Shown one piece after another: positions 6,901 through 29,095 of a DNA stretch of 32,000 nt. The DNA is from Lentibacter algarum (GTDB taxonomy: Bacteria > Pseudomonadota > Alphaproteobacteria > Rhodobacterales > Rhodobacteraceae). The position numbers and the translations under genes are program-made. The stretch covers positions 132,626-164,625 of the forward strand of contig NZ_JAHKQI010000008.1 in NCBI RefSeq assembly GCF_018860975.1, read 5' to 3'. Numbering within the stretch: the first letter of the stretch is position 1; every line of letters begins with the position of its first letter. The notes under the pieces were generated by a model that was not told the origin of the DNA, made no database searches, and saw only the letters and a program-made list of their open reading frames with translations.

Positions 6901-8154
6901 ATGCCAACACTCAATTCGAACCTGCGCATCAATGGTGAGCGCCTGTGGGACAGCCTGATGGAAATGGCCAAAATCGGCCCCGGTGTTGCGGGCGGCAACA
7001 ACCGTCAGACACTGACGGACGAAGACGGCGAAGGCCGCGCCTTGTTTCAGTCGTGGTGCGAGGCGGCAGGATGCAGCATGGGGCTTGATACGATGGGCAA
7101 TATGTTCGCCACATGGGGCGGCACAGACCCAGACGCGCTGCCGGTTTATGTTGGCTCACACCTCGACACACAGCCAACTGGCGGCAAGTATGACGGCGTG
7201 CTTGGCGTGCTCGGCGGGCTTGAGCTCATCCGGACTTTGAACGACCTTGGCATTAAAACGAAACACCCGATCGTTGTCACCAACTGGACCAACGAAGAGG
7301 GCACACGTTATGCGCCGGCAATGCTGTCGTCTGGCGTTTTTGCTGGCATTCATACCGAAGACTGGGCCTACGCGCGCGAAGACGCGGAAGGGCTGAAGTT
7401 CGGCGACGAGCTCAAGCGCATCGGCTGGCGTGGTGATGAGGAAGTCGGCGCGCGCAAGATGCACGCCATGTTCGAGTTGCACATCGAACAAGGGCCGATC
7501 CTGGAAGCCGAGGGCAAGGACATCGGCGTTGTAACGCACGGGCAGGGGCTGTCGTGGACACAAGTCACCGTAACCGGCAAAGACAGCCACACAGGCTCAA
7601 CGCCCATGCCCATGCGCAAGAACGCAGGTCTCGGCATGGCGCGGATACTGGAGAAAGTTGACGAGATCGCATGGAGCCATGCCCCCCACGCTGTTGGCGC
7701 GGCAGGGCATATCGACGTTTACCCAAACTCACGCAACGTGATCCCGGGCCAAGTGGTGTTCACAGTTGATTTTCGCTCACCAGACCTGAGCGTGATCGAG
7801 GACATGGAAGCGCGGCTGCGCGTTGAAGGCCAGAAAGTCGCTGACGATATGGGGCTTACCGTGGAGTTCGAAAAGGTCGGCGGGTTTGATCCGGTGGCGT
7901 TTGACGAAGGCTGCGTAACAGCTGTCAGAAACGCCGCAGAGCGCATGGGCTATTCGCACATGAACCTCATCTCAGGGGCAGGCCACGACGCCTGCTGGAT
8001 CAACCGCGTCGCACCCACAGCCATGATCATGTGCCCCTGCGTTGACGGGCTTAGCCACAACGAAGCTGAAGAGATTTCAAAAGAATGGGCGACAGCTGGC
8101 ACTGACGTGCTGTTGCAAGCAGTTTTGGAGACGGCGGAGATTGTAGAGGACTAA
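6901..8154 (+). CDS. M20-family Zn amidohydrolase (N-carbamoyl-amino-acid / beta-ureidopropionase / allantoate amidohydrolase type)
   Basis: 417 aa. ...VYVGSHLDTQPTGGKYDGVLGVLGGLE... and ...NWTNEEG... are characteristic of the AmaB/AllC family. Its position in the pyrimidine locus fits the third step, ureidopropionate to beta-alanine. Confidence 0.8.
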   Translation: MPTLNSNLRINGERLWDSLMEMAKIGPGVAGGNNRQTLTDEDGEGRALFQSWCEAAGCSMGLDTMGNMFATWGGTDPDALPVYVGSHLDTQPTGGKYDGVLGVLGGLELIRTLNDLGIKTKHPIVVTNWTNEEGTRYAPAMLSSGVFAGIHTEDWAYAREDAEGLKFGDELKRIGWRGDEEVGARKMHAMFELHIEQGPILEAEGKDIGVVTHGQGLSWTQVTVTGKDSHTGSTPMPMRKNAGLGMARILEKVDEIAWSHAPHAVGAAGHIDVYPNSRNVIPGQVVFTVDFRSPDLSVIEDMEARLRVEGQKVADDMGLTVEFEKVGGFDPVAFDEGCVTAVRNAAERMGYSHMNLISGAGHDACWINRVAPTAMIMCPCVDGLSHNEAEEISKEWATAGTDVLLQAVLETAEIVED

Positions 8155-8159
8155 AGTTT

Positions 8160-8639
8160 ATGGGTTGGGATGGTAAGCAAATAACTGGCCTAAGAGAGCA
8201 AAAGGCGGGGTCAAATAGCGCGCTATATGAACACCTCTTGATGCCAAATGAGTCCGTAAAGTTTGAGTATAAGAGTATTCGCGATGTGCTAATTCTGACA
8301 GAAGTTCGTCTCGTTTCTATTGACTCGCAAGGCCTCACTGGGCGGAAAAAGGAATATATGTCTGTCGGATTCCACCAAATTACGGCATTCTCCATTGAAA
8401 CTGCAGGAACTTTTGATTTGGACGGAGAGTTCAAGGTTTGGTTGTCTGGCATGGGGCTTCTTGAATTTGAATTCGTAAAGGGTGTGGATATCAAGAAACT
8501 TGCAAAATTTATGTCTGGAAAAACACTTCCCGAAATTCCTGCGAGAAAAACTGCGTCTGAAGGCACAGCATCACCTAAAACAGATGAAGATCGCACACCA
8601 AGACTTAACGGTGGCGGCATATTCGGGCGGCAACAGTAA
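8160..8639 (+). CDS. Bacterial PH-domain (YokE-like) protein of unknown function
   Basis: 159 aa. ...ESVKFEYKSIRDVLILTEVRLVSIDSQGLTGRKKEYMSVGFHQITAFSIETAGTFDLDGEFKVW... has the bPH-like beta-sandwich pattern. Codon usage is visibly AT-richer than in both flanking genes. Confidence 0.5.
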   Translation: MGWDGKQITGLREQKAGSNSALYEHLLMPNESVKFEYKSIRDVLILTEVRLVSIDSQGLTGRKKEYMSVGFHQITAFSIETAGTFDLDGEFKVWLSGMGLLEFEFVKGVDIKKLAKFMSGKTLPEIPARKTASEGTASPKTDEDRTPRLNGGGIFGRQQ

Positions 8640-8662
8640 ATGTTCCGATAAGGAGAAACAAC

Positions 8663-10126
8663 ATGACAACCAAAGTTATCAAAGGCGGCACTGTTTGCAC
8701 GGCGGATCGTAGCTATAAGGCGGATGTTCTGATCGAGGGTGAGGTGATCAAGCAGATCGGCCAAGACCTTGTCGGAGATGAGTATATCGACGCCGAGGGC
8801 GCTTACGTGATCCCCGGCGGCATTGATCCGCACACGCACCTTGAAATGCCGTTCATGGGCACCACGGCGGCCGAAACGTTTGAGTCCGGCACATGGGCCG
8901 CGGCGGTTGGTGGCACAACGATGGTGGTTGATTTCTGCCTGCCCGGTGAAGACGGCGACCTCAAGAACGCGATCAACGAATGGCACCGCAAAAGCGCTCC
9001 GCAGATTTGTTCGGATGTCGGCTATCACATGGCGATCACTGGCTGGGATGAAAGCGTGTTTAACGGCATGAAAGACGCCGTTGATATGGGTGTGAACTCG
9101 TTCAAGCATTTCATGGCCTACAAAGGCGCGTTGATGATCGAGGACGACGAAATGTTCGCGAGCTTCAAGCGCTGTGCCGAGCTTGGTGCGCTGCCGATGG
9201 TGCACGCCGAGAACGGTGACTTGGTTGCCGAATTGCAGCAGAAATACTTCGATCAAGGCATCACGGGGCCAGAGGGGCATGCCTACTCGCGCCCTCCCGA
9301 GCTTGAAGGAGAGGCGGCGAACCGTGCGATCACCATTGCCGACACCGCTGGCGTGCCGCTTTATATCGTGCATGTATCCTGCGAACAGACACATGAAGCC
9401 ATCCGCCGCGCCCGCCAGAAGGGCATGCGGGTTTATGGCGAGCCTTTGGTGCAGTTCCTCACGCTGGATGAGAGCGAATATTTCAACAAAGACTGGGACC
9501 ATGCCGCGCGCCGCGTGATGTCGCCTCCGTTCCGCAGCAAAGACCACCAAGACAGCCTTTGGGCTGGGTTGCAGTCGGGCTCTTTGCAAGTTGTGGCGAC
9601 GGACCACGCCGCCTTTAGCACCGCGCAAAAGCGGGCAGGGCGCGATGATTTTCGCATCATCCCCAACGGCTCTAACGGGCTGGAAGAGCGCCTCGCTGTG
9701 CTTTGGACAGAAGGCGTGGAAACAGGCCGCCTGACCAAGGAAGAGTTCGTCGCGACGACCTCGACCAATGTGGCGAAGATCCTCAACATCTACCCCAAAA
9801 AGGGCGCGATTGTTGAGGGCGCTGATGCGGATATCGTGGTCTGGGATCCGAAGATTTCCAAGACCATCAGCCCGAGCAACCACCACTCTGTGCTGGACTA
9901 CAACGTCTTTGAAGGCTTTGAAGTTAAAGCACAATCACGCTACACACTGAGCCGTGGTGAAGTGATCTGGGCCTGGGGCAAGAACAGCCAGCCCAACCCC
10001 GGCCGTGGCCGTTTTGTGCCGCGTCCTGCGTTTGGCTCGGCCAACCAGGCCCTCAGCCAGTGGAAGGCGCTTAACTCGCCCCGCAAGATCGAGCGTGACC
10101 CACAGAACATTCCGGCAGGTATTTGA
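8663..10126 (+). CDS. Dihydropyrimidinase / D-hydantoinase
   Basis: 487 aa. It has the cyclic amidohydrolase motifs ...VIPGGIDPHTHLEMPF..., ...FKHFMAYKG... and ...VHAENGD.... A strong RBS (AAGGAG) precedes the ATG. Confidence 0.9.
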   Translation: MTTKVIKGGTVCTADRSYKADVLIEGEVIKQIGQDLVGDEYIDAEGAYVIPGGIDPHTHLEMPFMGTTAAETFESGTWAAAVGGTTMVVDFCLPGEDGDLKNAINEWHRKSAPQICSDVGYHMAITGWDESVFNGMKDAVDMGVNSFKHFMAYKGALMIEDDEMFASFKRCAELGALPMVHAENGDLVAELQQKYFDQGITGPEGHAYSRPPELEGEAANRAITIADTAGVPLYIVHVSCEQTHEAIRRARQKGMRVYGEPLVQFLTLDESEYFNKDWDHAARRVMSPPFRSKDHQDSLWAGLQSGSLQVVATDHAAFSTAQKRAGRDDFRIIPNGSNGLEERLAVLWTEGVETGRLTKEEFVATTSTNVAKILNIYPKKGAIVEGADADIVVWDPKISKTISPSNHHSVLDYNVFEGFEVKAQSRYTLSRGEVIWAWGKNSQPNPGRGRFVPRPAFGSANQALSQWKALNSPRKIERDPQNIPAGI

Positions 10127-10905
10127 TGAACCAACCAGTGATTTCAGCGCAGAACCTGTCGCTGACATTTGAAACCAACGATGGCCCTGTGCATGCGCTC
10201 AGTGACATTAACCTTGATATCAACAAGGGTGATTTTGTCAGTTTTATTGGCCCGTCGGGCTGCGGTAAAACCACGTTTTTGCGCTGTATCGCTGACTTGG
10301 AAACTCCGACAGGCGGCAACGTAACTGTCAACGGCATGTCCGCCGCCGAGGCCCGCATGAAACGCGCTTATGGCTATGTGTTTCAGGCGGCGGGGCTTTA
10401 CCCTTGGCGCACGATTGGCGGCAACATCCGCTTGCCGCTTGAGATCATGGGCTATGACAAAGCCGAGCAGGCCGAGCGTGTGAAAAACGTGCTGGAATTG
10501 GTCGAGTTGGACGGCTTTGAAAAGAAGTTCCCGTGGCAGCTTTCAGGCGGCATGCAACAGCGCGCGAGCATCGCCCGCGCGTTGGCGTTTGACGCTGACA
10601 TACTGCTGATGGACGAGCCTTTCGGCGCATTGGACGAGATCGTGCGCGATCACCTCAACGAGCAGCTGCTCAAGCTTTGGGCGCGCACGGAAAAGACCAT
10701 CGGATTTGTCACCCACTCCATTCCCGAAGCAGTGTTCCTGTCTACCAAGATTGTGGTCATGTCGCCGCGTCCGGGGCAGATTTATGAGGTGATAGAGAGC
10801 AACCTGCCGCGCGACCGCACGCTTGATATCCGCGACAGTGTCGAGTTCAACGACATCGCGCACCGCGTGCGTGAGGGCCTGAGAGCAGGGCACGCTTATG
10901 ACTAA
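10126..10905 (+). CDS. ABC transporter ATP-binding protein (NitT/TauT family)
   Basis: Walker A GPSGCGKTT, signature LSGGMQQR, Walker B LLMDEPFGALD. The ATG at 10126 overlaps the dihydropyrimidinase stop (TGATG). Confidence 0.9.
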   Translation: MNQPVISAQNLSLTFETNDGPVHALSDINLDINKGDFVSFIGPSGCGKTTFLRCIADLETPTGGNVTVNGMSAAEARMKRAYGYVFQAAGLYPWRTIGGNIRLPLEIMGYDKAEQAERVKNVLELVELDGFEKKFPWQLSGGMQQRASIARALAFDADILLMDEPFGALDEIVRDHLNEQLLKLWARTEKTIGFVTHSIPEAVFLSTKIVVMSPRPGQIYEVIESNLPRDRTLDIRDSVEFNDIAHRVREGLRAGHAYD

Positions 10906-11782
10906 GGCGGGGGCAATCTGGCATCGCACTGCGCCGGTGCTCTGCATCCTGATCTTGTTGCTGGCGGTGTGGTATGCCGCCGCAATCGCGCTCAACGCGG
11001 CTTGGGCCAAGGACAAGGCCGCCCGTGCTGACAAGCAGCTTACATTCTCCGAGTTGGTCTCTGACACAATGGCACAAGAAAAGCCGCTGTTGCCCGCGCC
11101 ACACCAAGTTGCGCAGGAGATATACAAGACAACGGTGCTCAAGAAGATCACGTCAAAGCGCTCGCTAATCTGGCACGGCTGGATCACGCTTTCAGCAACG
11201 CTACTTGGCTTTGCTTTTGGCACAGCACTCGGGATAATGCTTGCAATCGGCATCGTTTACAGCCGCGCGATGGATATGTCGGTGATGCCTTGGGTGATCA
11301 CAAGCCAGACCATCCCGATCCTCGCAGTTGCCCCGATGATCATAGTCGTGCTCAACGCGGTTGGCGTGTCGGGGCTCCTGCCTAAGGCCTTCATTTCAAT
11401 GTATCTTTCCTTCTTTCCGGTCGTCGTTGGCATGGTTAAGGGCCTGCGCGCGCCGGATCATATGCAGCTTGACCAGATGCGCACATGGAACGCCTCTTCG
11501 AGCACATCCTTCTGGAAGCTGCGCCTGCCAAGCTCGATGCCCTATCTCTTTGCCTCACTCAAAATCGGCATTGCGGCCTCGCTCGTAGGGGCTATCGTCG
11601 GTGAGCTGCCGACAGGGGCTGTCGCGGGCCTCGGCGCACGCTTGCTGGCAGGTAGCTACTATGGCCAGACAATCCAGATATGGAGCGCTTTGATTTGTGC
11701 TGCCGTGCTCGCAGCAAGCCTCGTGGCGCTGATCGGGTTTGTCGAAAAAGTCACGCTGAAAAGAATGGGGATGCTGCAATGA
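10898..11782 (+). CDS. ABC transporter permease
   Basis: 294 aa, multi-pass, hydrophobic. It overlaps the upstream ATPase stop and the downstream permease start. Confidence 0.8.
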   Translation: MTKAGAIWHRTAPVLCILILLLAVWYAAAIALNAAWAKDKAARADKQLTFSELVSDTMAQEKPLLPAPHQVAQEIYKTTVLKKITSKRSLIWHGWITLSATLLGFAFGTALGIMLAIGIVYSRAMDMSVMPWVITSQTIPILAVAPMIIVVLNAVGVSGLLPKAFISMYLSFFPVVVGMVKGLRAPDHMQLDQMRTWNASSSTSFWKLRLPSSMPYLFASLKIGIAASLVGAIVGELPTGAVAGLGARLLAGSYYGQTIQIWSALICAAVLAASLVALIGFVEKVTLKRMGMLQ

Positions 11783-13697: not shown

Positions 13698-13747
13698 TTG
13701 GCTCCGGCGGTAGGGATCGAACCTACGACAAATTGATTAACAGTCAA
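13698..13747 (-). repeat. Orphan copy of the tRNA-Asn 3' portion (att site, int-proximal)
   Basis: TGGCTCCGGCGGTAGGGATCGAACCTACGACAAATTGATTAACAGTCAA is identical to 28018-28066, and one extra T (13698 / 28017) also matches. It runs from CCA back through the anticodon loop into the 5' strand of the anticodon stem. The sequences diverge immediately after (GCG vs CTG). Confidence 0.95.
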
Positions 13748-13814
13748 GCGACGATATTTACTCACTTGGTGTAAGTTGATGCGGTTCATTAGTAAAAACA
13801 GTGGTTTGCACCTG

Positions 13815-13824
13815 TTTTGCAACG
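13815..13824 (-). repeat. CGTTGCAAAA motif copy (inverted orientation)
   Basis: TTTTGCAACG on the + strand, i.e. the reverse complement of the motif found in tandem at 13874-13894 and 27940-27961. Confidence 0.6.
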
Positions 13825-13873
13825 ACAATCAATCGGTTGACAGTGCGCCGGAATGCGCCTTAGTGATTTTGTG

Positions 13874-13894
13874 CGTTGCAAAACGTTGCAAAAA
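13874..13894 (+). repeat. Tandem CGTTGCAAAA motif (2 copies), candidate arm-type integrase/excisionase binding sites or int operator
   Basis: CGTTGCAAAA-CGTTGCAAAAA ends 14 bp upstream of the integrase ATG (13908). The same tandem occurs at the opposite island end (27940-27961). Confidence 0.6.
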
Positions 13895-13907
13895 CGGAGC
13901 ATTACGG

Positions 13908-15056
13908 ATGACTGCCGCACTTGATTTCACAAAGCCCGCCCGACTGCGAAAAGCCGCACCCGGCATGTATCGCCACGACGGGGATCGTTTCCCCGGCCTC
14001 TATCTCAACGTCGGGAAGACCAAGAACACTTGGTACATCAAACGCCGCGTCGATGGGAAAACGAAGTCGATCAAGGTCGGAGCGTTCCCGGCTATGGATG
14101 CGGTCACCGCGTTTAAACAGGGGGACACCAAGACGAGCGTTGCCAAGAGCAATATCGTAACCGTTCGCGATGGTTGGGAGTTCTGGTGCGATACGTCGCA
14201 GGCGCAAGGCGGTATGTCCGACGATCACCGCAACCGAATGTCCCGACAGCTTGAAATGCACGCGAGGGGGATCATGGACCGCAATGTGGCCGACGTAACC
14301 TCCGCAGACGTTCAGGGTGTCCTCAACGACCTGATGGCTGAGGGAAAGAAGGCAACAGCGAGGGCGGTGCGCATCGGTATCGGCAATGCTTTCAACTTCG
14401 CACCCGTCGTAAATCCAGTTGGGCAGAAAAAGACGCGCGTCGCCAAAAGCGATGAAACAGAGGCGCAATGGACGGCGGCGGCACACGCCCACGATCTCGA
14501 CGCAGACGATTGGTCGGTGATCTGGGAGGCAATAATGGCGCGACGTGAGAAGAACGTCATTGTCGGCACGGCGGTCGCCGTCATGTTCCTTACGGGCATC
14601 CGGTCGGAGAACGTTTGCTCGCTCTCGTGGGATCAAATCGATTTGCAGAACAAGACGATCCACCTGACCAAGATGAAGAACAAACTCGCCCGCACGTTGC
14701 CCGTGATGGATACGGTGATCGACCTGCTCAAGGCGATCCGTGAGACGGACAGTGAATGGGTGTTCCCGGCGTCGTCGGCCACGGGATACATCACGGACCC
14801 CAAAGGCACGTTCGCCACGATCAACGACGAGAGCGTCCGCGTTTTCCTGCCTCATGATGGGCGGCGTCATTTCATGCAGGCGTCTGCCGAGGCGTTCTTG
14901 CCCGACTATGTCGCCCACTTCCTGCGCGGCGATAAGAAGGCGGGCGAGGGTAGCGACATGCTGATGAAATACCTCAAGCGCATGGGTAACCGTCGTGCCG
15001 TCGAGGACATTGAAAAAGTGTATTTCAACCGCATTAAGGTAGAACCTTCTTTCTAA
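13908..15056 (+). CDS. int: Divergent tyrosine recombinase / integrase
   Basis: I chose ATG 13908 (GGAG 9 nt upstream) as the start. The N-terminus ...GLYLNVGKTKNTWYIKRRVDGKTKSIKVG... is a DUF4102-like arm-binding domain. The C-terminus ...FLPHDGRRHFMQASAEA...FLRGDKKAGEGSDMLMKYLK is a degenerate HxxR ... Y catalytic region. The gene is adjacent to the att repeat. Confidence 0.8.
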   Translation: MTAALDFTKPARLRKAAPGMYRHDGDRFPGLYLNVGKTKNTWYIKRRVDGKTKSIKVGAFPAMDAVTAFKQGDTKTSVAKSNIVTVRDGWEFWCDTSQAQGGMSDDHRNRMSRQLEMHARGIMDRNVADVTSADVQGVLNDLMAEGKKATARAVRIGIGNAFNFAPVVNPVGQKKTRVAKSDETEAQWTAAAHAHDLDADDWSVIWEAIMARREKNVIVGTAVAVMFLTGIRSENVCSLSWDQIDLQNKTIHLTKMKNKLARTLPVMDTVIDLLKAIRETDSEWVFPASSATGYITDPKGTFATINDESVRVFLPHDGRRHFMQASAEAFLPDYVAHFLRGDKKAGEGSDMLMKYLKRMGNRRAVEDIEKVYFNRIKVEPSF

Positions 15057-21923: not shown

Positions 21924-22150
21924 AGTCGCCCCATTCAGAATTCCTCGGCTGGGATCACTACGCTCGCGACCATGCAAGGCGTTTGGAAGCCGCCAACTCG
22001 GCAAGGCATCCCGAATGGGTTGAACTGCCCGCGACCCGCCGCGCCGCAAAAGGGGAAGCCAAGTATTTCACGGGCAAGCCGTGCGCGAATGGGCACATCT
22101 CCCCGCGATATTCATCTGGGTGTTGCCGCGCCTGTCAGACAGGGCGGTAA
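21920..22150 (+). CDS. Small Cys-rich zinc-ribbon protein (76 aa)
   Basis: The TTG start at 21920 sits 7 nt after a very strong SD (AAAGAGGAGG) and overlaps the TerS stop. ...YFTGKPCANGHISPRYSSGCCRACQ is a C-x4-H ... C-x2-C motif that recurs in alphaproteobacterial phage proteins. Confidence 0.5.
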   Translation: MKSPHSEFLGWDHYARDHARRLEAANSARHPEWVELPATRRAAKGEAKYFTGKPCANGHISPRYSSGCCRACQTGR

Positions 22151-22152
22151 AA

Positions 22153-22932
22153 ATGCCATTTGACGCCCTCATACCGTGGTGCGCAGAGCTTGAACGCTCG
22201 CTCGATCCCGCTGCGCGTCTGCGCCATTGGATCGGTCATGAGCCTGATCCTTGGCAGATCGACGCTTTTACCACGCAGGCGACGGAAGTCGCCCTGCGGG
22301 TCGGTCGTCAGGCGGGCAAGACCTCGGTGCTGGCCGCGCGCTCGGTTGAAGAATTGCACATCCCGGATTCATTGACCATCTGCGTTGCGCCCGCAGAGCG
22401 GCAAGCCAAGATCATCGCGCGAGAAATCGGGCGACAGTTGAAGCGCACCGAATTGGTCATCACGCGCTCGACGCTGACCGAACTCGAAATGTCGAACGGT
22501 GCCCGTGTCGTCGCGCTGCCGTCCACGTCGGACACTATTCGCGGCTATCCATCGGTATCGTGCCTGATCATTGACGAATGCGCTTTCTTGCAAGGCGATG
22601 GCGGCGGCGAAGACTTGATTGCGGGCGTCCTGCCAATGCTGACGGAAAAAGGGCAAGTTTATTTTAGCTCAACGCCTGCGGGCAAAAACAACTATTTCGC
22701 GCGTCTGTTCCTCGACGCAAAGCCGGGTGACGGTGTTCACCGCATTGTCGTCAAAGGCACGGACATCCCGCGACTGAAAGACAAAGTGGAGCGGATGCGT
22801 CGCACGTTGTCCGCGACCAAATTCCGCCAAGAGATCGAGTGCGAACTGCTTTCGGATGGCACCAGCTACTTCGACTTCTCAATCATCGAAAACGCAATAA
22901 GCACGGAGGGCGCAATATGTCCCAAGATGTGA
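22153..22932 (+). CDS. terL: Terminase large subunit, ATPase domain only (split TerL, N-terminal part)
   Basis: 259 aa from ATG 22153. Walker A is ...LRVGRQAGKTSVLA..., Walker B ...VSCLIIDECAFL..., and the coupling motif ...YFSSTP.... The ORF stops at 22932. Confidence 0.8.
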   Translation: MPFDALIPWCAELERSLDPAARLRHWIGHEPDPWQIDAFTTQATEVALRVGRQAGKTSVLAARSVEELHIPDSLTICVAPAERQAKIIAREIGRQLKRTELVITRSTLTELEMSNGARVVALPSTSDTIRGYPSVSCLIIDECAFLQGDGGGEDLIAGVLPMLTEKGQVYFSSTPAGKNNYFARLFLDAKPGDGVHRIVVKGTDIPRLKDKVERMRRTLSATKFRQEIECELLSDGTSYFDFSIIENAISTEGAICPKM

Positions 22933-23654
22933 ACTACGAAAACGCACTCAACCTCGTCTATCTGCCTGACGGGCGCGTAGTGAATGAAACAAACCAAGAC
23001 CCGGCCATCGAACGGGTCACGGGACACCAAAACTATTGGGTTGCCGCTGACCTCGGGCAGGCAAATGACTACACCGCCGTTGCAGTCATCAAAGACGAGG
23101 CGCTGCCCATCGTTGACGGATCGAAGGTCATCGTGGGACCGCGCCACCGTTCAATCGTACACGCTGATCGCTTCCGTGGCGTGTCCTATGTCGATGTCTG
23201 CGATTACCTGATCCGCTTGCGCAACGCGCCGCCGTTTGGTGGCAAGTCTGAACTTGTGATCGACGGCACGTCGCTCGGACGCGTCGTATCGGACATGCTC
23301 TGGGATCAATCAGTCGATCACCACGCCGTGCAAATGACCGGAGGCCAATCATGGCGCAAGGAAAGCTCGCGGTATGTCAACGCGGGGAAGACATTCATGA
23401 TCGAAAACTTGTCCGTGCTGTTTGCCTCAGGCGACCTCAAGTTTGCACATGACTTGCGGTTGCGCGACGAGATCGCATCCGACCTAGCCTCCTTCTCGTT
23501 GCAGACCACAGCAGCAGGCAATCAGATCATCACGCAGTCACGATCCGCAGGCGGTCACGGGGATTTGGGGATTGCGGTAATCGTCGGCGCGTTCGCGTCG
23601 CAATATCTGCGCCCGAAGATGGTCACGACCCACACGCTGCGCGGGTGGTATTGA
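22917..23654 (+). CDS. terL: Terminase large subunit, RNaseH-like nuclease domain only (split TerL, C-terminal part)
   Basis: 245 aa from ATG 22917 (GGAGGG 5 nt upstream), overlapping the ATPase ORF by 16 nt in another frame. ...YWVAADLGQANDYTAVAVI... contains the first catalytic Asp motif, and ...SAGGHGDLGIAVIVGA... is the late acidic motif. Confidence 0.75.
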   Translation: MSQDVNYENALNLVYLPDGRVVNETNQDPAIERVTGHQNYWVAADLGQANDYTAVAVIKDEALPIVDGSKVIVGPRHRSIVHADRFRGVSYVDVCDYLIRLRNAPPFGGKSELVIDGTSLGRVVSDMLWDQSVDHHAVQMTGGQSWRKESSRYVNAGKTFMIENLSVLFASGDLKFAHDLRLRDEIASDLASFSLQTTAAGNQIITQSRSAGGHGDLGIAVIVGAFASQYLRPKMVTTHTLRGWY

Positions 23655-23804
23655 CGTCTGTCGTCGCACTCTTGGCAACCGCGTGGGACGTAACACCGTG
23701 AACTCGACGAGCGAACGCGATGAACTGCGCAGCTCTGCGGTAATGCGGGGTTTTGGGCATAACCGTGGGGCACCGACCATAACCACCTTCGCTGACGGGG
23801 ATTT

Positions 23805-23831
23805 GCGGCGACCACGGGTAGTGGTCGCCGC
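23805..23831. terminator. Perfect 11-bp hairpin between convergent transcription units
   Basis: GCGGCGACCAC-GGGTA-GTGGTCGCCGC lies 6 nt beyond the stop of the 44-aa gene (- strand) and ~150 nt after terL-C (+ strand). There is no strong U-tract on either strand, so its termination function is uncertain. Confidence 0.45.
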
Positions 23832-23837
23832 AGCGGT

Positions 23838-23972
23838 TTAAAGAAACGAAAAGCCCACTGCGACGAGCGCAACGACGATCACGAATACGGCCCCAACGGC
23901 AATGTTGCCGCTTGCATTTGCTTCGAAGTGCTTTCCGATTTTGATCAGGAGTTTGTTTTCTTGGCTGTTCAT
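23838..23972 (-). CDS. Unannotated 44-aa single-pass membrane peptide, downstream of and probably co-transcribed with the AIPR-like gene
   Basis: It is absent from the ORF track (<60 aa). My hand translation is MNSQENKLLIKIGKHFEANASGNIAVGAVFVIVVALVAVGFSFL*. A GAGGAG RBS lies 7 nt upstream of the ATG and overlaps the stop of the AIPR-like ORF. The C-terminal ~22 residues form a hydrophobic helix. Confidence 0.6.
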   Translation of the reverse strand: MNSQENKLLIKIGKHFEANASGNIAVGAVFVIVVALVAVGFSFL

Positions 23973-23983
23973 GCCTAAGCTCC

Positions 23984-25207
23984 TCAACCCATTGTGTCCA
24001 ATTGCTGCTGCATTACATGCAGCCGCACCGATTTGAACAAATTGGCCCAGTGGTTTCGATTTTTACCAAGCGAATCCGGCGCATTACCGATGTCACTAAT
24101 TGCTTGTTTAGTTTCTGAAACCAACTCAGGCGCTAGGTCGCGCCAAGAAGCAAGAACGTTCTCGAAACCGCCAACCCATTCAGCGCATCCGGTGTCCGGA
24201 TTGATTGAAACAAAATTTCGAAACGCGCCCAGAATTGGGTAAGCGGCCCCCTTGGTCAAACGCTGGTCGTGGTCGTCCAGTTTTGCATATTGGAACTTGT
24301 GTCGGCCCTTGCTTGGAGGAGCCTTCTCCACAATCCTCAGGTTTCCGGCGCGGCCTTTGACGGTCTCATTGTAAACCTTGAGAAATTCCCGGCGAATGTG
24401 ATCGTATAGTACAAGAGTTTCGATCAGTAGAGGTTCAAAGGCCGCGTATTTTCTGGGTTCGCCAGTTTTCTTGTGCTCTTTAAAGTCGTCACCATACTTC
24501 ATCAGCGGCGTTGACCACTTCTCATAGGCCGCAATTGGATGCTTAGACTCACGAACAGGAAAATCCGTGACGTTCATCAGTTCAAGAACAGACACCAGTT
24601 CTCGGACGTCAATGTCCTTCTTGTCTGACTCTTTGAAACCAATATCGTTTGCCCAGTCTTGATCCTTCACGATTTCCTTGAGGCTATCGAACGCGCCATC
24701 AAGTTCAAAGATCGACCGAGGTTGCACAGAAATTCCAGTGTTCTGCCCTCTTGCGATGTCCACACGCAGTGTGTGGTTTTCTCCACCTTCTAGCCCGGTG
24801 ATGATTTTGACTTCGACGTGCTGGCCTTCGCCGATCGAATCATCCTCTTGACAGTCGTAAATGATCCGGGTGGTGTGGCCGCCATTGGCGATACCGTAAT
24901 CATCATCAATCATGACGTCGAAGACCCGCTTGTCGATCACCTCGATGTCTTCGGCAATGATGGTAATCCCCAGATTCAACAGGTCGAAGGTGCCTGGCAG
25001 TGCCTCTTTGCCTTCGAGGCTTGCTTTTACGTCCTTATACACCTGCCGGTTCATACCAACAGGGTCGCGCAAATTTGCGCCCGTCGGGACGTCCTTTGGG
25101 AAGAGGCGTGCAGGGACCAAGAAGGTGTGCTTGACGATGTTTGGGAGGGTGGGGTGTTTAACGCTACGCGCTTCGGACACCTCAAACCGATATGGTTTGA
25201 TAGCCAT
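23984..25207 (-). CDS. AIPR-like (abortive-infection phage-resistance family) protein, tentative
   Basis: The likely start is MAIKPYRF (ATG 25207, GGAG upstream); alternative starts are 25222 and 25252. ...GTFDLLNLGITIIAEDIEVID...DDDYGIANGGHTTRIIY... resembles the AIPR N-terminal core (..NG.QT..). The gene is visibly AT-richer than the island backbone and is divergent from a cytosine methyltransferase. Confidence 0.45.
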   Translation of the reverse strand: MAIKPYRFEVSEARSVKHPTLPNIVKHTFLVPARLFPKDVPTGANLRDPVGMNRQVYKDVKASLEGKEALPGTFDLLNLGITIIAEDIEVIDKRVFDVMIDDDYGIANGGHTTRIIYDCQEDDSIGEGQHVEVKIITGLEGGENHTLRVDIARGQNTGISVQPRSIFELDGAFDSLKEIVKDQDWANDIGFKESDKKDIDVRELVSVLELMNVTDFPVRESKHPIAAYEKWSTPLMKYGDDFKEHKKTGEPRKYAAFEPLLIETLVLYDHIRREFLKVYNETVKGRAGNLRIVEKAPPSKGRHKFQYAKLDDHDQRLTKGAAYPILGAFRNFVSINPDTGCAEWVGGFENVLASWRDLAPELVSETKQAISDIGNAPDSLGKNRNHWANLFKSVRLHVMQQQLDTMG

Positions 25208-25435
25208 TCTTGAGTACTCCATGGGCCACGACGGACCAATGTTGCGGGGCACGATGACCCCGGACGGCAGGATTGCCTGAGCCTTGGTACCAAAAAATCA
25301 GCGTTATGGCAACACAGGTTGCGCTTTTTTTCTCGTCCGACACAAGATATGCTGTTACTGATTTTCACGAGACATAAAGGCTGGGCAGTTAGGACTTGAT
25401 CCCGTGATAAACAAAATGACGAGAAAAACGACGAG

Positions 25436-26584
25436 ATGATGGGTTTCAATTACTACGACTTCTTTGCAGGTGGCGGCATGGCCGGGTTTGGTCTCGGGTC
25501 GAACTGGGATTGCCTGTTCGCGAACGACATAGACGCGAAGAAGGCAGCGAGTTACCGCGCCAACCATCATGGCGGCAAGGAACTGCTGCTAAAGGACGTT
25601 GCTCAGGTCACATTAGACGAACTACCCGGGTCGCCTGACCTCGTGTGGGCCTCATTTCCATGCCAAGACCTGTCGCTTGCTGGCAATGGTGCGGGCCTCG
25701 CGGGCAAGCGTAGCGGGATGTTCAAACCGTTCTGGAAACTGATGCGGTCACTTCACGCCGATGGTCGCGGCCCCAAGATCATCGCACTAGAGAACGTCTA
25801 CGGGGCGATCACGAGCAATGGCGGTCGAGACTTCGCAACACTTGCCGCTGCCTTCTCGGGCCTTGGGTATAGGTTCGGCGCTGTCGTCGTCGATGCGGTG
25901 CACTTCCTACCGCAATCCCGTCCGCGCTTCTTCATGGTAGGTGTTCGGGGCGACTTGACGATCCCGGAAAGTCATACAGTAGATGGCCCTTGCGCGATGT
26001 GGCATCCGCCCGCGCTTATCGAAGGTTGCAACCTGCTTTCGCAGACAGCAGCATCGCGTTGGCGTTGGTGGAACCTGCCAACACCGCCAGCTCGGAACAC
26101 AAACCTTGCTTCGCTGATCGAAGACAAGCCGACTGGTGTAAAGTGGCACACGAAAGCAGAAACCAAATACCTGCTCGACATGATGACCGACCACAACCGC
26201 AAGAAAGTCGAAGCGGCCAAGCAGTGTGAAGAGCGGGTGGTGGGCACGATCTACAGGCGCACGCGCGCGGACGCTGATGGTGTGAAGCGGCAGCGGGCAG
26301 AGGTGCGCTTTGACCAGATTGCTGGGTGCCTACGCACGCCTGCTGGCGGTTCAAGCCGTCAGACAATCATGTTGGTAGAGGGAAGCAAGGTTCGCTCGCG
26401 CTTGCTGTCAACGCGCGAAGCCGCATCCCTAATGGGCCTGCCTGAAACCTATATCCTACCTGAACGCTACAACGACGCCTATAAACTCGCGGGCGATGGC
26501 GTTGCCGTTCCGGTCGTTCGTCACCTTGCAGAGGCGATCTTTGAACCGCTCTTAAAGCGGAATCGACTCGCTTTGGTTGCCTGA
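25436..26584 (+). CDS. dcm: DNA (cytosine-5) methyltransferase
   Basis: 382 aa with the canonical C5-MTase motifs: I DFFAGGGM, IV SFPCQDLS, VI ENV, VIII QSRPRFF, and X GDGVAVPVV. Confidence 0.92.
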   Translation: MMGFNYYDFFAGGGMAGFGLGSNWDCLFANDIDAKKAASYRANHHGGKELLLKDVAQVTLDELPGSPDLVWASFPCQDLSLAGNGAGLAGKRSGMFKPFWKLMRSLHADGRGPKIIALENVYGAITSNGGRDFATLAAAFSGLGYRFGAVVVDAVHFLPQSRPRFFMVGVRGDLTIPESHTVDGPCAMWHPPALIEGCNLLSQTAASRWRWWNLPTPPARNTNLASLIEDKPTGVKWHTKAETKYLLDMMTDHNRKKVEAAKQCEERVVGTIYRRTRADADGVKRQRAEVRFDQIAGCLRTPAGGSSRQTIMLVEGSKVRSRLLSTREAASLMGLPETYILPERYNDAYKLAGDGVAVPVVRHLAEAIFEPLLKRNRLALVA

Positions 26585-26603
26585 TTTCTAGTAAGTATCG
26601 GTC

Positions 26604-27314
26604 ATGGTTGACCGAAATCCCGACGATACAAATTTCCCACCTTTTGAAACCGAAGATCTTCGGTCCAATTTGGCTGAGTTTCTAACCCAGAAATTCGATG
26701 ATCCGATCACAGGGAAGCCGCGCGTAATAGGCGGCTTCAAATGGGGCGTATATGCTTTCTTCGATTACGACGGAGAACCTATTTACGTCGGCCAGACGAA
26801 AGAAAAAGTAAGTACCCGAATTAGGCGGCACCTGACAAATCAGCGGACAGATGCTGTTGCAATGTCGGTGCTTGACCCGTTCGAGGTTTACGAGGTCGAA
26901 GTTTGGCCACTACCGCAGTTTCAGAAAACAGGCGCAACTGATGTTGCCGCCAAAGCGCATTTGGATGCCCTTGAGGACCTTGTTTATCAAGAGGCGATTG
27001 CAGGCAGCACTTTCAAAGCGGTGCTAAATGAAAAAGACCCACCTGCACCGACAGTAGCCGTGACGAAACCCCCATCGCTTCGCTATCGACTTGTCTCGGA
27101 CGAGGTTCACAAGATTAGGTCGCACCCTGATTTCCGCATTGCACGGCGAGCCTTGATCATCTCGCGTCTGGCGCAGGTCATCTCGGAGCGGAAGGTGCAA
27201 GGTGGGCTACGACGGGTATTGTTGACCCAAGCTAAGCGGCTACAATGGCTTGCAGAGCGACGCTATGTGGCGTTGGGCGGGGAAGCGTCGGTCGAGGTTG
27301 AGGAAGGCGAATAA
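26604..27314 (+). CDS. GIY-YIG nuclease-domain protein (candidate restriction endonuclease partner of the C5-MTase)
   Basis: 236 aa, 19 bp downstream of dcm on the same strand. ...KWGVYAFFDYDGEPIYVGQTKEKVSTRIRRHL... matches the GIY ... YIG ... R ... H core. The ~110-aa C-terminal region is unassigned. Confidence 0.65.
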   Translation: MVDRNPDDTNFPPFETEDLRSNLAEFLTQKFDDPITGKPRVIGGFKWGVYAFFDYDGEPIYVGQTKEKVSTRIRRHLTNQRTDAVAMSVLDPFEVYEVEVWPLPQFQKTGATDVAAKAHLDALEDLVYQEAIAGSTFKAVLNEKDPPAPTVAVTKPPSLRYRLVSDEVHKIRSHPDFRIARRALIISRLAQVISERKVQGGLRRVLLTQAKRLQWLAERRYVALGGEASVEVEEGE

Positions 27315-27346
27315 CACCCGCGAGGTTGCACATGTTTCGGGTCTTT

Positions 27347-27856
27347 CTAGAACGGCACGTCGTCGTCAGACGACTCGAACGGATTGGCGACCTTTTTGTC
27401 GGGCCAATTCACTGAGGGTTCGTCATCCGTCTTAGGTGCCTCCCCACCTGCGGCTATGTCCTTCTCAATCATCCGTTCAAGCGCCTTGCCGTAGGCTGGC
27501 ATCTTCCACGACTTCTCGCCCGCTTCCTTACCGCGTTCGTCCTGAATGTCATTGATAGGGCGTTTCGGATGTAGTCCGATCACATACCCTTCATGGCGGC
27601 GCACACCGCCCGACTTGTTCGAGCGCCGCCGCTTCTTCGGAAGTGCGTAAAATACTCGAACCTTTTCCCAGTCGTCGGGGTCAAGCACCTCTTGGAAGAA
27701 GTGGAATCGTTCATCGACAGTCAGCGGGCTGGCTTCCTGGTCGGACAGAAATACACGGCCGTCAGAATCGACGGTCACATTGTGCATATGCTTCTCGCGG
27801 AAGTTGGGCGTCCTGTAGCGCGGTGATCGCCTAGACTTTCCTGTCGTGGTTTTCAT
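27347..27856 (-). CDS. Protein of unknown fold with an SSB-like acidic C-terminal tail (...SSDDDVPF)
   Basis: 169 aa. The last residues, NPFESSDDDVPF*, mimic the conserved bacterial SSB tip (DDDIPF). The N-terminal ~120 aa (…VDSDGRVFLSDQEASPLTVDERFHFFQEVLDPDDWEKVRVFYALPKKRRRSNK…) shows no OB-fold SSB signature that I recognise. Confidence 0.6.
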   Translation of the reverse strand: MKTTTGKSRRSPRYRTPNFREKHMHNVTVDSDGRVFLSDQEASPLTVDERFHFFQEVLDPDDWEKVRVFYALPKKRRRSNKSGGVRRHEGYVIGLHPKRPINDIQDERGKEAGEKSWKMPAYGKALERMIEKDIAAGGEAPKTDDEPSVNWPDKKVANPFESSDDDVPF

Positions 27857-27866
27857 GAACCCGATG

Positions 27867-27892
27867 TTGACCAGTCAGCGCATTGTGGTCAA
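27867..27892. promoter_or_regulatory. Inverted repeat TTGACCA-N12-TGGTCAA upstream of the SSB-tail gene (candidate operator)
   Basis: Perfect 7-bp arms at 27867-27873 and 27886-27892, starting 11 bp upstream of the ATG at 27856 on the - strand. Confidence 0.4.
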
Positions 27893-27939
27893 GCGTTTGA
27901 AGCGAAATGCAAATAGCTGTAACTGCCCAAAGCGTCACG

Positions 27940-27961
27940 CGTTGCAAAATCGTTGCAAAAA
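27940..27961 (+). repeat. Tandem CGTTGCAAAA motif (2 copies) at the tRNA-proximal island end
   Basis: CGTTGCAAAAT-CGTTGCAAAAA has the same sequence and orientation as 13874-13894 at the other end, and lies ~57 bp from the att core. Confidence 0.6.
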
Positions 27962-27963
27962 TC

Positions 27964-27989
27964 AAAAAAGGCGAACCCGAAGGTTCGCC
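27964..27989 (-). terminator. Rho-independent terminator for tRNA-Asn, supplied by the island
   Basis: On the - strand, GGCGAACC-TTCG-GGTTCGCC is followed by TTTTTT, ~28 nt downstream of the tRNA CCA end and inside the island. Confidence 0.75.
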
Positions 27990-28017
27990 CATTTTACTTA
28001 ACTATCAAGTAGTTAAT

Positions 28018-28092
28018 TGGCTCCGGCGGTAGGGATCGAACCTACGACAAATTGATTAACAGTCAACTGCTCTACCGCTGAGCTACGCCGGA
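28018..28092 (-). tRNA. tRNA-Asn (anticodon GTT), intact, with encoded CCA
   Basis: The reverse complement is TCCGGCG-TA-GCTC-AGCGGTA-GAGC-A-GTTGA-CTGTTAA-TCAAT-TTGTC-GTAGG-TTCGATC-CCTAC-CGCCGGA-G-CCA. This is 75 nt with a full cloverleaf. Confidence 0.95.
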
Positions 28093-28171
28093 ATGTCTGG
28101 GGGATATAGCAACAGCACTCCTGCGCGTCTAGAGGCTTTTGTTGCTATTTATCCAAAAAGATATGCACGTC

Positions 28172-29095
28172 CTAAACGAGGGCAAACACCGCTTCGGCGC
28201 TCAGTTGCGGGGCGGCTGAAACGCGCTTGTGAATGTGCAGGTCAATAAGGTGTGCAAAGACATTGCGCGTCGCTGCTGGGATCAGGGCTGGCGGTGTTTC
28301 GGTGTATATCTGACGTGCCAGAGCCTCTGCCGTTGCGGGGCTGTTTTCCAGTGCCGCCAAAATCTGCGCTTCGCGACCCAGCCGATGCTCTATGAGCCAG
28401 TTCAGACGCGCTTCAGGGTCTTCGATCGGTGCGCCATGACCGGCGTGAAACACCCGCCAGTCTCGCGTGGCCAGCTTGCGGCACGATGCCATGAAAGCCG
28501 TGAGGTCGCCGTCAGGAGGGCTGACAAGCGAGCTCGCCCAGCCCATCACCAGATCACCGCAAAACACCATGTCGCGCATCGCAAAGCTGAGATGATTGCC
28601 GAAGTGCCCGGGCGTGTGCAGGGCCGTCAAAGCCCAGTCACCGTGATGCACTGACTCGCCGTCAACCAGCATGATGTCGGGAGCAAAGCCTTCGTCAACG
28701 CCTTCACCTCCGCCTGCAAGCCCTTGGGCTGCCAGATCGTTCATGGTGTCAGAACGGCCTGATTTGCTGTCGCCAAAGGCCAACACTGGCGCGCCTGTCA
28801 CTTGTGACAGTGGTTTGGCGAGCGGGGAGTGGTCCGTATGCGAATGTGTGACAAAGATATGGCTGATACGTTCCTTTGGCTTAAGCGCGCCCAGCAGGGC
28901 TTGTAAATGTGTCTCGCTTGACGGGCCAGGATCGATCACCGCGACATCGCCTTCGCCAACGAGGTAGGTGTTGGTGCCGCGGTAGGTCATCGGTGAGGCG
29001 TTGTCAGCAACCACGCGGCGCAAGCCGTCGTCAAGTTGCTGGGGCTGGCCGATGACAGGATCAAAATCATCCGGGGCGCTAAGTGGGGTGTTCAT
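28172..29095 (-). CDS. MBL-fold metallo-hydrolase
   Basis: 307 aa. It has the metal-binding motif ...IFVTHSHTDHSP... (HxHxDH), and later ...LHTPGH... and ...CGDLV.... Confidence 0.8.
   Translation of the reverse strand: MNTPLSAPDDFDPVIGQPQQLDDGLRRVVADNASPMTYRGTNTYLVGEGDVAVIDPGPSSETHLQALLGALKPKERISHIFVTHSHTDHSPLAKPLSQVTGAPVLAFGDSKSGRSDTMNDLAAQGLAGGGEGVDEGFAPDIMLVDGESVHHGDWALTALHTPGHFGNHLSFAMRDMVFCGDLVMGWASSLVSPPDGDLTAFMASCRKLATRDWRVFHAGHGAPIEDPEARLNWLIEHRLGREAQILAALENSPATAEALARQIYTETPPALIPAATRNVFAHLIDLHIHKRVSAAPQLSAEAVFALV

Follow-up and report, generated by a model that had tools for sequence, protein, structure and literature searches.

A cargo region with two slots in a satellite-like tRNA-Asn island of Lentibacter algarum

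Introduction

The stretch of DNA considered here, below called the window, consists of 32,000 nucleotides of the Lentibacter algarum contig NZ_JAHKQI010000008.1 (positions 132,626 to 164,625), and it raises a simple question: do the five genes found at 23838-27856 form one multi-gene defence system, or are several systems stacked at one site? A first-pass annotation had left the choice open. It had divided the genes into three units: an AIPR-like gene followed by one for a small membrane peptide, a C5-methyltransferase (MTase) gene followed by one for a GIY-YIG nuclease, and a convergent gene for a protein with a tail like that of SSB, a protein which binds single-stranded DNA. All five genes are real and have the coordinates given for them, and the AIPR, DNA_methylase and GIY-YIG domains are confirmed by Pfam.

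The window was compared with related loci, about 50 in all, labelled L001-L053. The reading which we prefer, with a probability of about 0.7, is that the block of five genes represents the variable, cargo-bearing end of a satellite-like island of 14.3 kb at a tRNA-Asn gene, and that it consists of two independently mobile two-gene cassettes and one core gene. Judged by which genes occur together in the compared loci, the five genes are not one system and the locus is stacked. The stacking which the annotation had offered as one of its two possibilities thus agrees with the co-occurrence check; the single novel multi-gene system does not, since the parts vary independently across genomes. The MTase-GIY-YIG pair is found in many loci which have neither the AIPR-peptide cassette nor the SSB-tip gene, and in the 17 other genomes that carry AIPR and peptide no MTase, GIY-YIG, SSB-tip or terminase gene was found within 8 kb of them.

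Two slots between conserved flanks

The block was said to lie between the packaging genes and the att site, and this holds: the large terminase gene is at 22081-23654 and attR at 28017-28066. The terminase gene, on the plus strand, forms the left flank of the cargo and is split into an ATPase part (22081-22932) and a second open reading frame (ORF) which runs from an ATG at 22917 to 23654. In the sister islands it is likewise called as two genes (about 260 + 245 aa), and its identity to the window is 76-94%. The other flank is the SSB-tip gene (27347-27856, minus strand). Between these two genes there are two cargo slots, and their contents differ between the sister islands.

The slot on the SSB-tip side holds the C5-MTase and GIY-YIG genes in the window, L001, L002 and L031. 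Elsewhere it is occupied by an EcoRV-like restriction endonuclease (REase) with a D12 MTase (L005, L013, L048), a NotI-like REase with a C5-MTase (L043), a SmaI-like REase with an N4/N6 MTase (L044), a REase_II gene recognised by PADLOC (L009), or a 444-aa C5-MTase with a 279-aa ORF without assignment (L046). The slot on the terminase side (about 23820-25278) holds AIPR and the peptide in the window, and in other islands CapH and CapP (L031; PADLOC 3e-25 and 4e-50), a DUF3489 protein together with a T5orf172/PDC-S57 protein and a glycosyltransferase (L005, L013, L048), a PD-T4-6/mad6-like kinase with a 155-aa partner (L043, L046), or an AriA/Old-like ATPase (L044). Unrelated cassettes therefore alternate between conserved flanks, with six variants on the SSB-tip side and five on the terminase side, and this supports the interpretation of the block as a probable two-slot defence hotspot. 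The annotation had placed the block in the cargo position of a satellite-like element, and the different restriction-modification (R-M) genes and PADLOC-recognised defence genes at the same two slots bear this out.

Two islands illustrate how the terminase-side cassette may be exchanged. L031 is the clearest example: identity to the window is 100% for the SSB-tip protein, 99% for GIY-YIG, 97% for the MTase and about 94% for the terminase, and the exchange, for CapH and CapP, is confined to the 1.8 kb with AIPR and peptide. In L001, a near-identical island from a metagenome, MTase, GIY-YIG and SSB-tip are 98-100% identical, whereas AIPR (322-1545 of that locus) is only 84% identical to window positions 23984-25207; this suggests that the cassette was exchanged by allelic replacement through recombination. 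It should be mentioned that CapH and CapP in L031 (3176-4271), a regulator pair of a helix-turn-helix (HTH) protein and an M78 peptidase, are divergent from the MTase-GIY-YIG operon, which hints at a control of the DNA-damage type in that island.

The concept of defence hotspots in satellites comes from P4-like satellites and phage-inducible chromosomal islands (PICIs; Rousset et al., 2022, PMC9122126). Like these, the present island is integrative and small and has genes for an integrase, AlpA and a primase, and unrelated defence cassettes alternate at a fixed site next to its packaging functions. It differs from them in its Rhodobacterales hosts, in the split large terminase and in that psu, sid and delta were not detected. 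Furthermore it has two adjoining slots, one of them with R-M genes in every sampled variant, and the flanking gene is the SSB-tip gene and not int. The two-slot hotspot would extend the phenomenon to a marine Rhodobacterales island family, beyond the enterobacterial and staphylococcal satellites which defined it, and the conserved flanks, terminase and SSB-tip gene, can be used for mining more cargo.

The island

A perfect direct repeat of 50 nt (13698-13747 and 28017-28066) delimits an island of 14.3 kb. The left copy, attL, duplicates the 3' part of the tRNA-Asn gene, and the right copy, attR, overlaps the 3' part of that gene itself (28018-28092, minus strand). The integrase gene (13776-15056) adjoins attL, and the perfect att repeats together with the integrase identify an integrative element. 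To the left of attL the DNA is chromosomal, with pyrimidine-catabolism-like genes and a transporter gene. Besides the integrase, Pfam and PHROGs find an AlpA-type HTH protein, an AEP-primase/DUF5906/VapE protein and the split large terminase, which matches Pfam Terminase_6N (5.6e-11), phrog_7579 (3.7e-35) and phrog_27743 (1.1e-27).

The island is a putative satellite. Against this status, Pfam and PHROGs revealed only the split terminase and neither a capsid nor a portal gene, and no helper phage was identified. A scan of IMG/VR with the second terminase ORF gave no match.

The block had also been described as visibly less GC-rich than the island backbone, each unit having its own regulatory-looking repeat. 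The difference in G+C is slight and uneven: it is found for the peptide (0.48) and AIPR (0.51) genes, GIY-YIG has 0.53, and the SSB-tip gene (0.56) and the MTase gene (0.58) compare with 0.56 for the backbone. Repeats do occur in every intergenic region of the block; only the AIPR leader is conserved elsewhere, and the structured nature of that leader had been missed.

The C5-methyltransferase and the GIY-YIG nuclease

The C5-MTase gene (25436-26584, plus strand) codes for 382 aa with intact FAGGG, PCQ and ENV motifs and matches Pfam DNA_methylase (5.1e-47) and the PADLOC models DruM2 (3.2e-155) and MTase_II (4.9e-100). The GIY-YIG gene (26604-27314, plus strand; 236 aa) starts 19 nt downstream. 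The Pfam match of its product is 2e-6; the predicted catalytic residues comprise GVY48-50, YVG61-63, R72/R75/H76, E94/E99 and N142, and the corresponding columns (GIY, YIG, Arg, His, Glu, Asn) are invariant in 17 homologues. The nuclease family is large, with 7105 matches, and identities of 79-97% are found across many Rhodobacterales and Oceanicaulis.

An orthologous MTase gene lies beside the GIY-YIG gene, in varying orientation, in every locus examined except L003 and L039, whose contigs end just upstream of the GIY-YIG gene (L003 retains only the 3' end of the MTase gene). The range includes Alpha- and Betaproteobacteria, plasmids of Actinomycetota and IMG/VR contigs. The identities of the two proteins to those of the window fall together, the GIY/MTase pairs of values being 82/84, 82/81, 81/83, 72.5/58, 68/59, 67/59, 62/57, 62/54 and 49/36. 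These comparisons show the pair to be a unit which is co-inherited and co-diverges across phyla.

What the unit does is less clear. The first-pass annotation had likened pieces of the block to R-M components, which is plausible for the pair; the assignment is made insecure by the canonical REase and/or Vsr present in homologous loci. We consider the chances about even that MTase and GIY-YIG constitute a type II R-M or addiction module with a restriction-type role of the nuclease. Methylation would then protect the DNA from the GIY-YIG nuclease. GIY-YIG type II enzymes with C5-MTases are known (Eco29kI and Cfr42I; PMC1952068, PMC2241918), and support comes from the sister islands, because five other R-M gene sets occupy the same slot. 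A restriction role is also supported by the order V-M-GIY in Mesorhizobium (V stands for Vsr, M for the MTase, R for a REase) and by L052, a plasmid of Ca. Mycobacterium, in which a frameshift has hit GIY-YIG, whereas the annotation gives M and Vsr as complete genes.

An alternative which we hold to be possible, though not probable, is that GIY-YIG is an accessory nuclease of this C5-MTase clade, either a non-homologous analogue of Vsr or a protein with a repair or stabilising function. The window would then contain a solitary methylase with its accessory nuclease, as in dcm-vsr, and the true REase would have been lost or never present. Several observations count against restriction and in favour of this alternative. 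GIY-YIG is not the sole restriction partner, since the canonical REase_II PDLC03501 (denoted R') is also present in L035, L038 and L039. On the Methylocystis plasmids of L035 the order is M-R'-GIY, where R' matches PDLC03501 over its full length (6.6e-115) and overlaps the MTase stop. Vsr, REase and GIY-YIG occur together in L038, with V-M-R' converging on GIY-YIG (8001-11292), and in L039, with the order R'-GIY-V and the MTase off the contig (3-1652). A different "restriction endonuclease" is present in L053, and Curtobacterium has the order R-M-GIY. On the Sphingomonas plasmid L050 an IS256 element interrupts the canonical REase, and both M and GIY-YIG have complete annotated genes there. 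Related MTases (62-63% identity) have DUF4928 (REase_II PDLC03543) as their partner and no GIY-YIG, Vsr being added in an Azospirillum plasmid. Among close pairs (>80%) GIY-YIG is more conserved than the MTase in all but two, which is unusual for restriction enzymes. The GIY-YIG protein matched no PADLOC REase model, neither Pfam RE_Eco29kI nor any solved GIY-YIG restriction enzyme, and sequence and profile searches of the PDB returned only UvrC with E values of 0.3 or worse. Finally, M-GIY pairs are also found in plain chromosomal and phage-like contexts, and it has been reported that a solitary C5-MTase can be stabilised by a nuclease (PMC12907096).

The accessory reading has its own difficulties. 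True Vsr occurs together with GIY-YIG in L051, L038 and L039, and remnants of such an arrangement are seen in L052 and in L033 (Polaromonas pW5NP1), where Vsr is frameshifted; a simple Vsr analogue would be redundant in such loci. The REase-MTase pairs at the equivalent slot in L005, L013, L043, L044 and L048, the Mycobacterium plasmid in which GIY-YIG is the decayed gene, and the precedent of Eco29kI and Cfr42I likewise speak for the restriction-type role. In their simple forms both "GIY-YIG = REase" and "GIY-YIG = Vsr analogue" had to be rejected, as some loci contradict each of them. A role of GIY-YIG other than restriction or accessory/repair is quite unlikely.

The comparison with known systems gives the same divided picture. 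As in the GIY-YIG type II systems (Eco29kI, Cfr42I; Hpy188I) the nuclease gene adjoins that of a C5-MTase and is co-inherited with it, and the residues predicted to be catalytic (Tyr, Arg, His, Glu, Asn) are retained; on the other side, no relation in sequence could be detected between the window nuclease and RE_Eco29kI or the structures solved for Eco29kI and Hpy188I, and some relatives of the window pair add a canonical REase and Vsr. With dcm-vsr and V-M-R clusters, in which very-short-patch repair is linked to C5-MTases, it shares a small nuclease gene in close linkage with a C5-MTase gene. The nuclease gene frequently comes second, and its product is conserved at least as well as the MTase; the fold, however, is GIY-YIG and not Vsr, and true Vsr co-occurs with it in the three loci mentioned. 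GIY-YIG may thus be a fourth component class of the Vsr/C5-MTase/REase clusters. This matters since a widespread GIY-YIG protein travels with one C5-MTase clade beside both REase and Vsr; should it turn out to be neither of these, a component of methylase clusters would so far have escaped recognition.

Some further observations were made on the pair. Residues 1-45 of GIY-YIG (26604-26740) are nearly invariant across genera (RNPDD..PPFETEDLR) and could be a protein-interaction motif. A tandem of two copies of AAAAYGACGAGA at the MTase start is found only in the window and L001 and is absent from the other M-GIY loci inspected. L004, L006 and L036 have a promoter-like CTTGA...GCGATAA box upstream of the MTase gene; the window has CTTGATCCCGTGATAAAC at 25390-25436, with a much shorter spacer. 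A third gene after GIY-YIG was considered and dropped, the 119-aa ORFs in L004 and L006 being mutually unrelated. Druantia was also rejected: DruM2 is the best PADLOC match of the MTase, yet no other Dru protein (DruE, DruF, DruG) is found in the block. Between the SSB-tip gene and a different C5-MTase gene, L046 and L047 contain a weak Vsr-like stretch at about 667-886 (31-38% identity to true Vsr).

The AIPR cassette

The AIPR gene (23984-25207, minus strand) codes for a 407-aa AIPR-core protein. The ORF is open to 25252 (422 aa), and the start was placed at M16 of this longer version because the homologues have 407-411 aa. It is followed by the gene for the membrane peptide (23838-23972, minus strand; 44 aa from ATG), a predicted tail-anchored protein consisting of MNSQENKLLIKIGKHFEANASGN and 21 hydrophobic residues; this ORF extends to a TTG at 23987 (49 aa). 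Just past the peptide stop there is a GC-rich hairpin (inverted repeat I1, 23804-23832) with a 12-bp stem of 100% complementarity and a loop of 5 nt, likely the terminator of the AIPR-peptide operon. A different hairpin is found at the matching position in L014.

A scan of the genome collection with the AIPR alignment gave 17 loci with AIPR proteins 56-98% identical, from Rhodobacterales, Hyphomicrobiales, Sphingomonadales and one unclassified alphaproteobacterial metagenome-assembled genome. A small ORF directly follows AIPR in 17 of 17 genomes, starting 11-24 nt past the AIPR stop or overlapping it. Its consensus has a hydrophilic head, KLLI(K/R)IGxxFEANA(T/S)G, and then about 20 hydrophobic residues to or near the C-terminus. 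The 44-aa peptide is evidently a real gene, translationally coupled to AIPR as far as its spacing tells; it gave no match in Pfam, PADLOC, PHROGs or NCBIfam.

DNA homology of the cassette, followed in six genomes, stops at 23820-23896 and 25277-25283; on the peptide side this is a few to some tens of bases from the stop codon, on the leader side roughly 70 nt ahead of the AIPR start. No recurrent third partner was found among 143 neighbouring ORFs; these include four integrases and two capsid genes, and the PADLOC models for a type I R-M component and a type II MTase matched one ORF each. AIPR, peptide and the leader described below are thereby shown to be a discrete, self-contained unit of 1.45 kb, under purifying selection and mobile on its own. 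The combination of a mini-AIPR gene with a peptide and an RNA leader appears to be undescribed: it is not in PADLOC v2 or Rfam 15, and full-text searches returned no paper on it.

The annotation had compared AIPR to abortive infection (Abi) proteins. The AIPR domain is present (Pfam 3.8e-19, 69.9 bits against a gathering cut-off of 25, residues 59-351), and this domain originates from AbiU, a lactococcal phage-resistance protein (PMC13064643). The full AbiU-type architecture was not found: the match to the PADLOC AbiU model (537 positions) is confined to 247-371 and that to phrog_1841 (567 positions) to 246-372, and the N-terminal approximately 245 residues of AbiU-type proteins are missing from the window protein. 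This N-terminal region has been described as HEPN (PMC3506569) and as nuclease-like (PMC13064643). Compared with AbiU (AbiUi) and the AIPR family PF10592, the window protein has a complete AIPR domain; it differs in its length, 407 aa against about 540-590, and in always having a 41-45-aa tail-anchored peptide after it and a three-hairpin leader before it.

An AlphaFold2 (AF2) model of AIPR has a pLDDT of 82.6. No significant structural neighbour was found in the PDB, and sequence and profile searches of the PDB gave nothing meaningful. Against a viral structure library the model matched an AIPR protein (1.7e-6) and then many GmrSD-N, DndB-like and ParB/Spo0J proteins with E values of about 0.01-1, individually not significant. 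This weak signal agrees with the published link of AIPR to the DndB N-terminal domain (PMC3506569).

We tentatively regard the cassette as a module of the abortive-infection type, an interpretation held with slightly less than even confidence. The AIPR core, if ParB/DndB-like, would be a sensor or switch; the membrane peptide would stand in for the missing N-terminal effector and damage the membrane; and the leader hairpins would give post-transcriptional (auto)control. Several of the results given above weigh against an Abi module, namely the partial PADLOC match to AbiU and the weakness of the ParB-like signal, and to these should be added that no AIPR was found in the IMG/VR scan and that the neighbours of AIPR and peptide are in most of the 17 genomes mostly housekeeping genes and not defence islands.

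The location among housekeeping genes, with integrases or capsid genes only occasionally nearby, points towards a different function, as do the sharp boundaries of the cassette, which moves as a unit, and the pairing of a structured RNA leader with a peptide that is small and hydrophobic, which resembles toxin-antitoxin architectures. The cassette might accordingly serve as a toxin-antitoxin or addiction module. Alternatively, the peptide might do no more than hold AIPR at the membrane, for a function that has nothing to do with phages. We find a nature of this kind, with no anti-phage role, rather unlikely, since the cassette occupies a slot that elsewhere holds PADLOC-recognised defence genes and since the AIPR domain derives from a resistance protein. 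Besides, the two views are not exclusive, as many Abi systems are toxin-antitoxin-like.

The leader RNA

The 5' leader of the AIPR operon (25224-25277, minus strand) contains three stem-loops, at 25277-25266, 25262-25245 and 25237-25224, followed by a GGAG ribosome-binding site. The hexaloops are of the CAUCG(U/C) type, except that the first one reads AAUCCU in the clade to which the window belongs. The leader is found in all 19 copies of the cassette, about 75-95 nt upstream of the AIPR start in L014-L030, and the approximately 70 nt are still conserved where AIPR identity falls to 56-64%.

RNAalifold on MAFFT alignments of the leader gave no structure, the hairpins being misaligned. Pairs were instead counted in a loop-anchored gapless alignment of the 19 copies, with slid partners and 500 shuffles as controls. 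In this alignment 92.1% of the cells were paired, against 30-46% in the slid controls, and 8 of the 12 pairs had changes on both sides. Compensations include GGAC/GUCC, GGAU/AUCC and GAAC/GUUC, as well as GGUC/GACC, GCCG/CGGC and AGCUG/CAGCU. The covariation was 0.511 against 0.258 in the shuffles, none of the 500 attaining the observed value; the sequences fall into two main clades, so that this statistic is inflated by relatedness. The slid controls and the compensations within clades argue for a real structure. G.U pairs occur only on the sense strand, which points to a leader in the mRNA.

Rfam gave only the tRNA at E <= 1 across 23500-28200, the leader being unmatched. Other clusters of CAUCGU hairpins were not found in the window or the compared loci beyond single hairpins at chance level, and the motif is absent upstream of the full-length AIPR gene in L042, the sole full-length locus checked.

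In type III toxin-antitoxin/Abi systems such as ToxIN and AbiQ-antiQ, pseudoknot repeats of 34-36 nt lie upstream of an Abi-type gene, and this likeness offers a lead. Common to both are short repeated structured RNA units directly upstream of an Abi-type gene. The differences are that the leader hairpins are about 14-18 nt, that the stretch from the hairpins to the gene showed no terminator, and that AIPR is not an RNase of the ToxN/AbiQ type.

The most far-reaching interpretation combines these features into an undescribed three-part Abi system, in which a HEPN-less, ParB/DndB-like AIPR core would bind or be controlled by the leader with its three CAUCGU hairpins, and phage infection would free a tail-anchored, membrane-collapsing peptide of 44 aa, with GIY-YIG in addition as a fourth component class of C5-MTase clusters distinct from REase and Vsr. 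Taken as a whole this combination is unlikely. The cassette is of interest in that the AIPR domain, long known yet obscure in its mechanism, occurs here in a small testable unit, its core being accompanied by an RNA leader and a membrane peptide.

The SSB-tip protein

The SSB-tip gene codes for a basic protein of 169 aa with an acidic linker and the C-terminal tip DDDVPF. The long ORF is supported because the sequence RYKTPNFREKH, upstream of an internal Met, is conserved. Of 25 homologues aligned, 22 retain a tip of the DDD[VIL]PF type, preceded by an acidic linker that varies. The family is small: an indexed search found 28 homologues, an exhaustive HMMER search of 1.84 billion proteins 24 cluster representatives, and a metagenome scan two loci only. 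There was no match in Pfam, PADLOC, NCBIfam or PHROGs.

The annotation had counted this gene as part of the cargo and a possible defence component. This is at variance with its distribution, as it is a conserved backbone gene of the island next to attR and not cargo. It is the gene nearest the island end in every sister island whose sequence covers that end, and it lies beside tRNA-Asn in L005, L009, L013 and L031; in the first three of these the order is histidine kinase, metallo-beta-lactamase (MBL) hydrolase, tRNA-Asn, SSB-tip gene. The genes which follow it vary between islands. In L044 a tRNA-Arg(tct) gene on the opposite strand (329-403) adjoins the SSB-tip gene in place of tRNA-Asn, and this may be a different integration site.

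The C-terminal tip of bacterial SSB is a motif which binds replication and repair proteins (PMC3632105). The window protein ends in a similar hexapeptide, DDDVPF where SSB has DDDIPF, also behind an acidic low-complexity linker (PMC3632105, PMC5872125); it differs from SSB in that its body is a small basic protein with no SSB/OB-fold domain by Pfam, and in that the family comprises only about 24 clusters. The protein could act as a basic adaptor which binds DNA and uses its DDDVPF tip to dock onto those host proteins that normally bind the C-terminus of SSB. The docking might serve replication of the island, or it might interfere with DNA transactions of the host or a helper. We infer this role from tail motif and position, and it should be weighed against the absence of any Pfam, PHROG or NCBIfam match to an OB-fold ssDNA-binding domain and an AF2 model which is not usable (pLDDT 49.7). 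If correct, the protein is a candidate route by which small elements plug into the SSB interaction network of the host.

Being always the immediate neighbour of the R-M slot, whichever genes occupy it, and having an acidic C-terminal region, the SSB-tip protein might belong functionally to that slot as a regulator, an establishment factor or an anti-restriction factor. This is improbable: the R-M genes beside it are mutually unrelated, which makes a specific partner unlikely, its invariant feature is the SSB tip, and Pfam, PADLOC, NCBIfam and PHROGs find neither an HTH nor a known controller-protein domain in it. The role of a replication or host-directed adaptor is therefore preferred.

Least tenable of all is one integrated defence system of five genes, a reading largely refuted by which genes occur together. 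In its favour, they are tightly packed, AIPR and MTase diverge from a common 228-nt intergenic region, R-M operons are reported to have AIPR genes in their company (PMC2292703, PMC3506569), plasmids of Arthrobacter and Azospirillum have full-length AIPR genes next to related C5-MTase clusters, and L001 repeats the order of the genes and L002 the AIPR-MTase-GIY part of it. But the last two loci are near-identical copies of the window's island, AIPR and peptide occur in 17 other genomes without the remaining three genes and in none of the other M-GIY loci examined, L031 exchanges AIPR and peptide alone, and the SSB-tip gene stays while both slots change.

Minor observations

The full-length AIPR genes just mentioned are those of L034 (1-392; Arthrobacter pA40H2, 591 aa) and L042 (6343-8019; Azospirillum TSH58_p07, 558 aa), at 0.7-2.4 kb from the C5-MTase clusters, which recalls the association of AIPR with R-M genes in the literature; unlike these, the mini-AIPR cassette itself is usually not beside R-M genes.

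A hairpin followed by a T-run at about 27964-27995 (27990-27969 on the minus strand, inverted repeat I3) is a terminator-like site which would terminate tRNA-Asn. It lies inside the island, just past attR, so that the terminator of the tRNA gene would be supplied by the island. Between this hairpin and the SSB-tip gene two copies of CGTTGCAAAA are arranged in tandem (direct repeat D8, 27940-27960).

At the left edge of the window a 385-aa ORF (11-1168, minus strand) has an N-terminus which resembles the arm-binding part of a tyrosine integrase (MAKLTKRYVESIQNPERETILWDEELAGFGVRIYP...); it is perhaps part of a further element outside the window.

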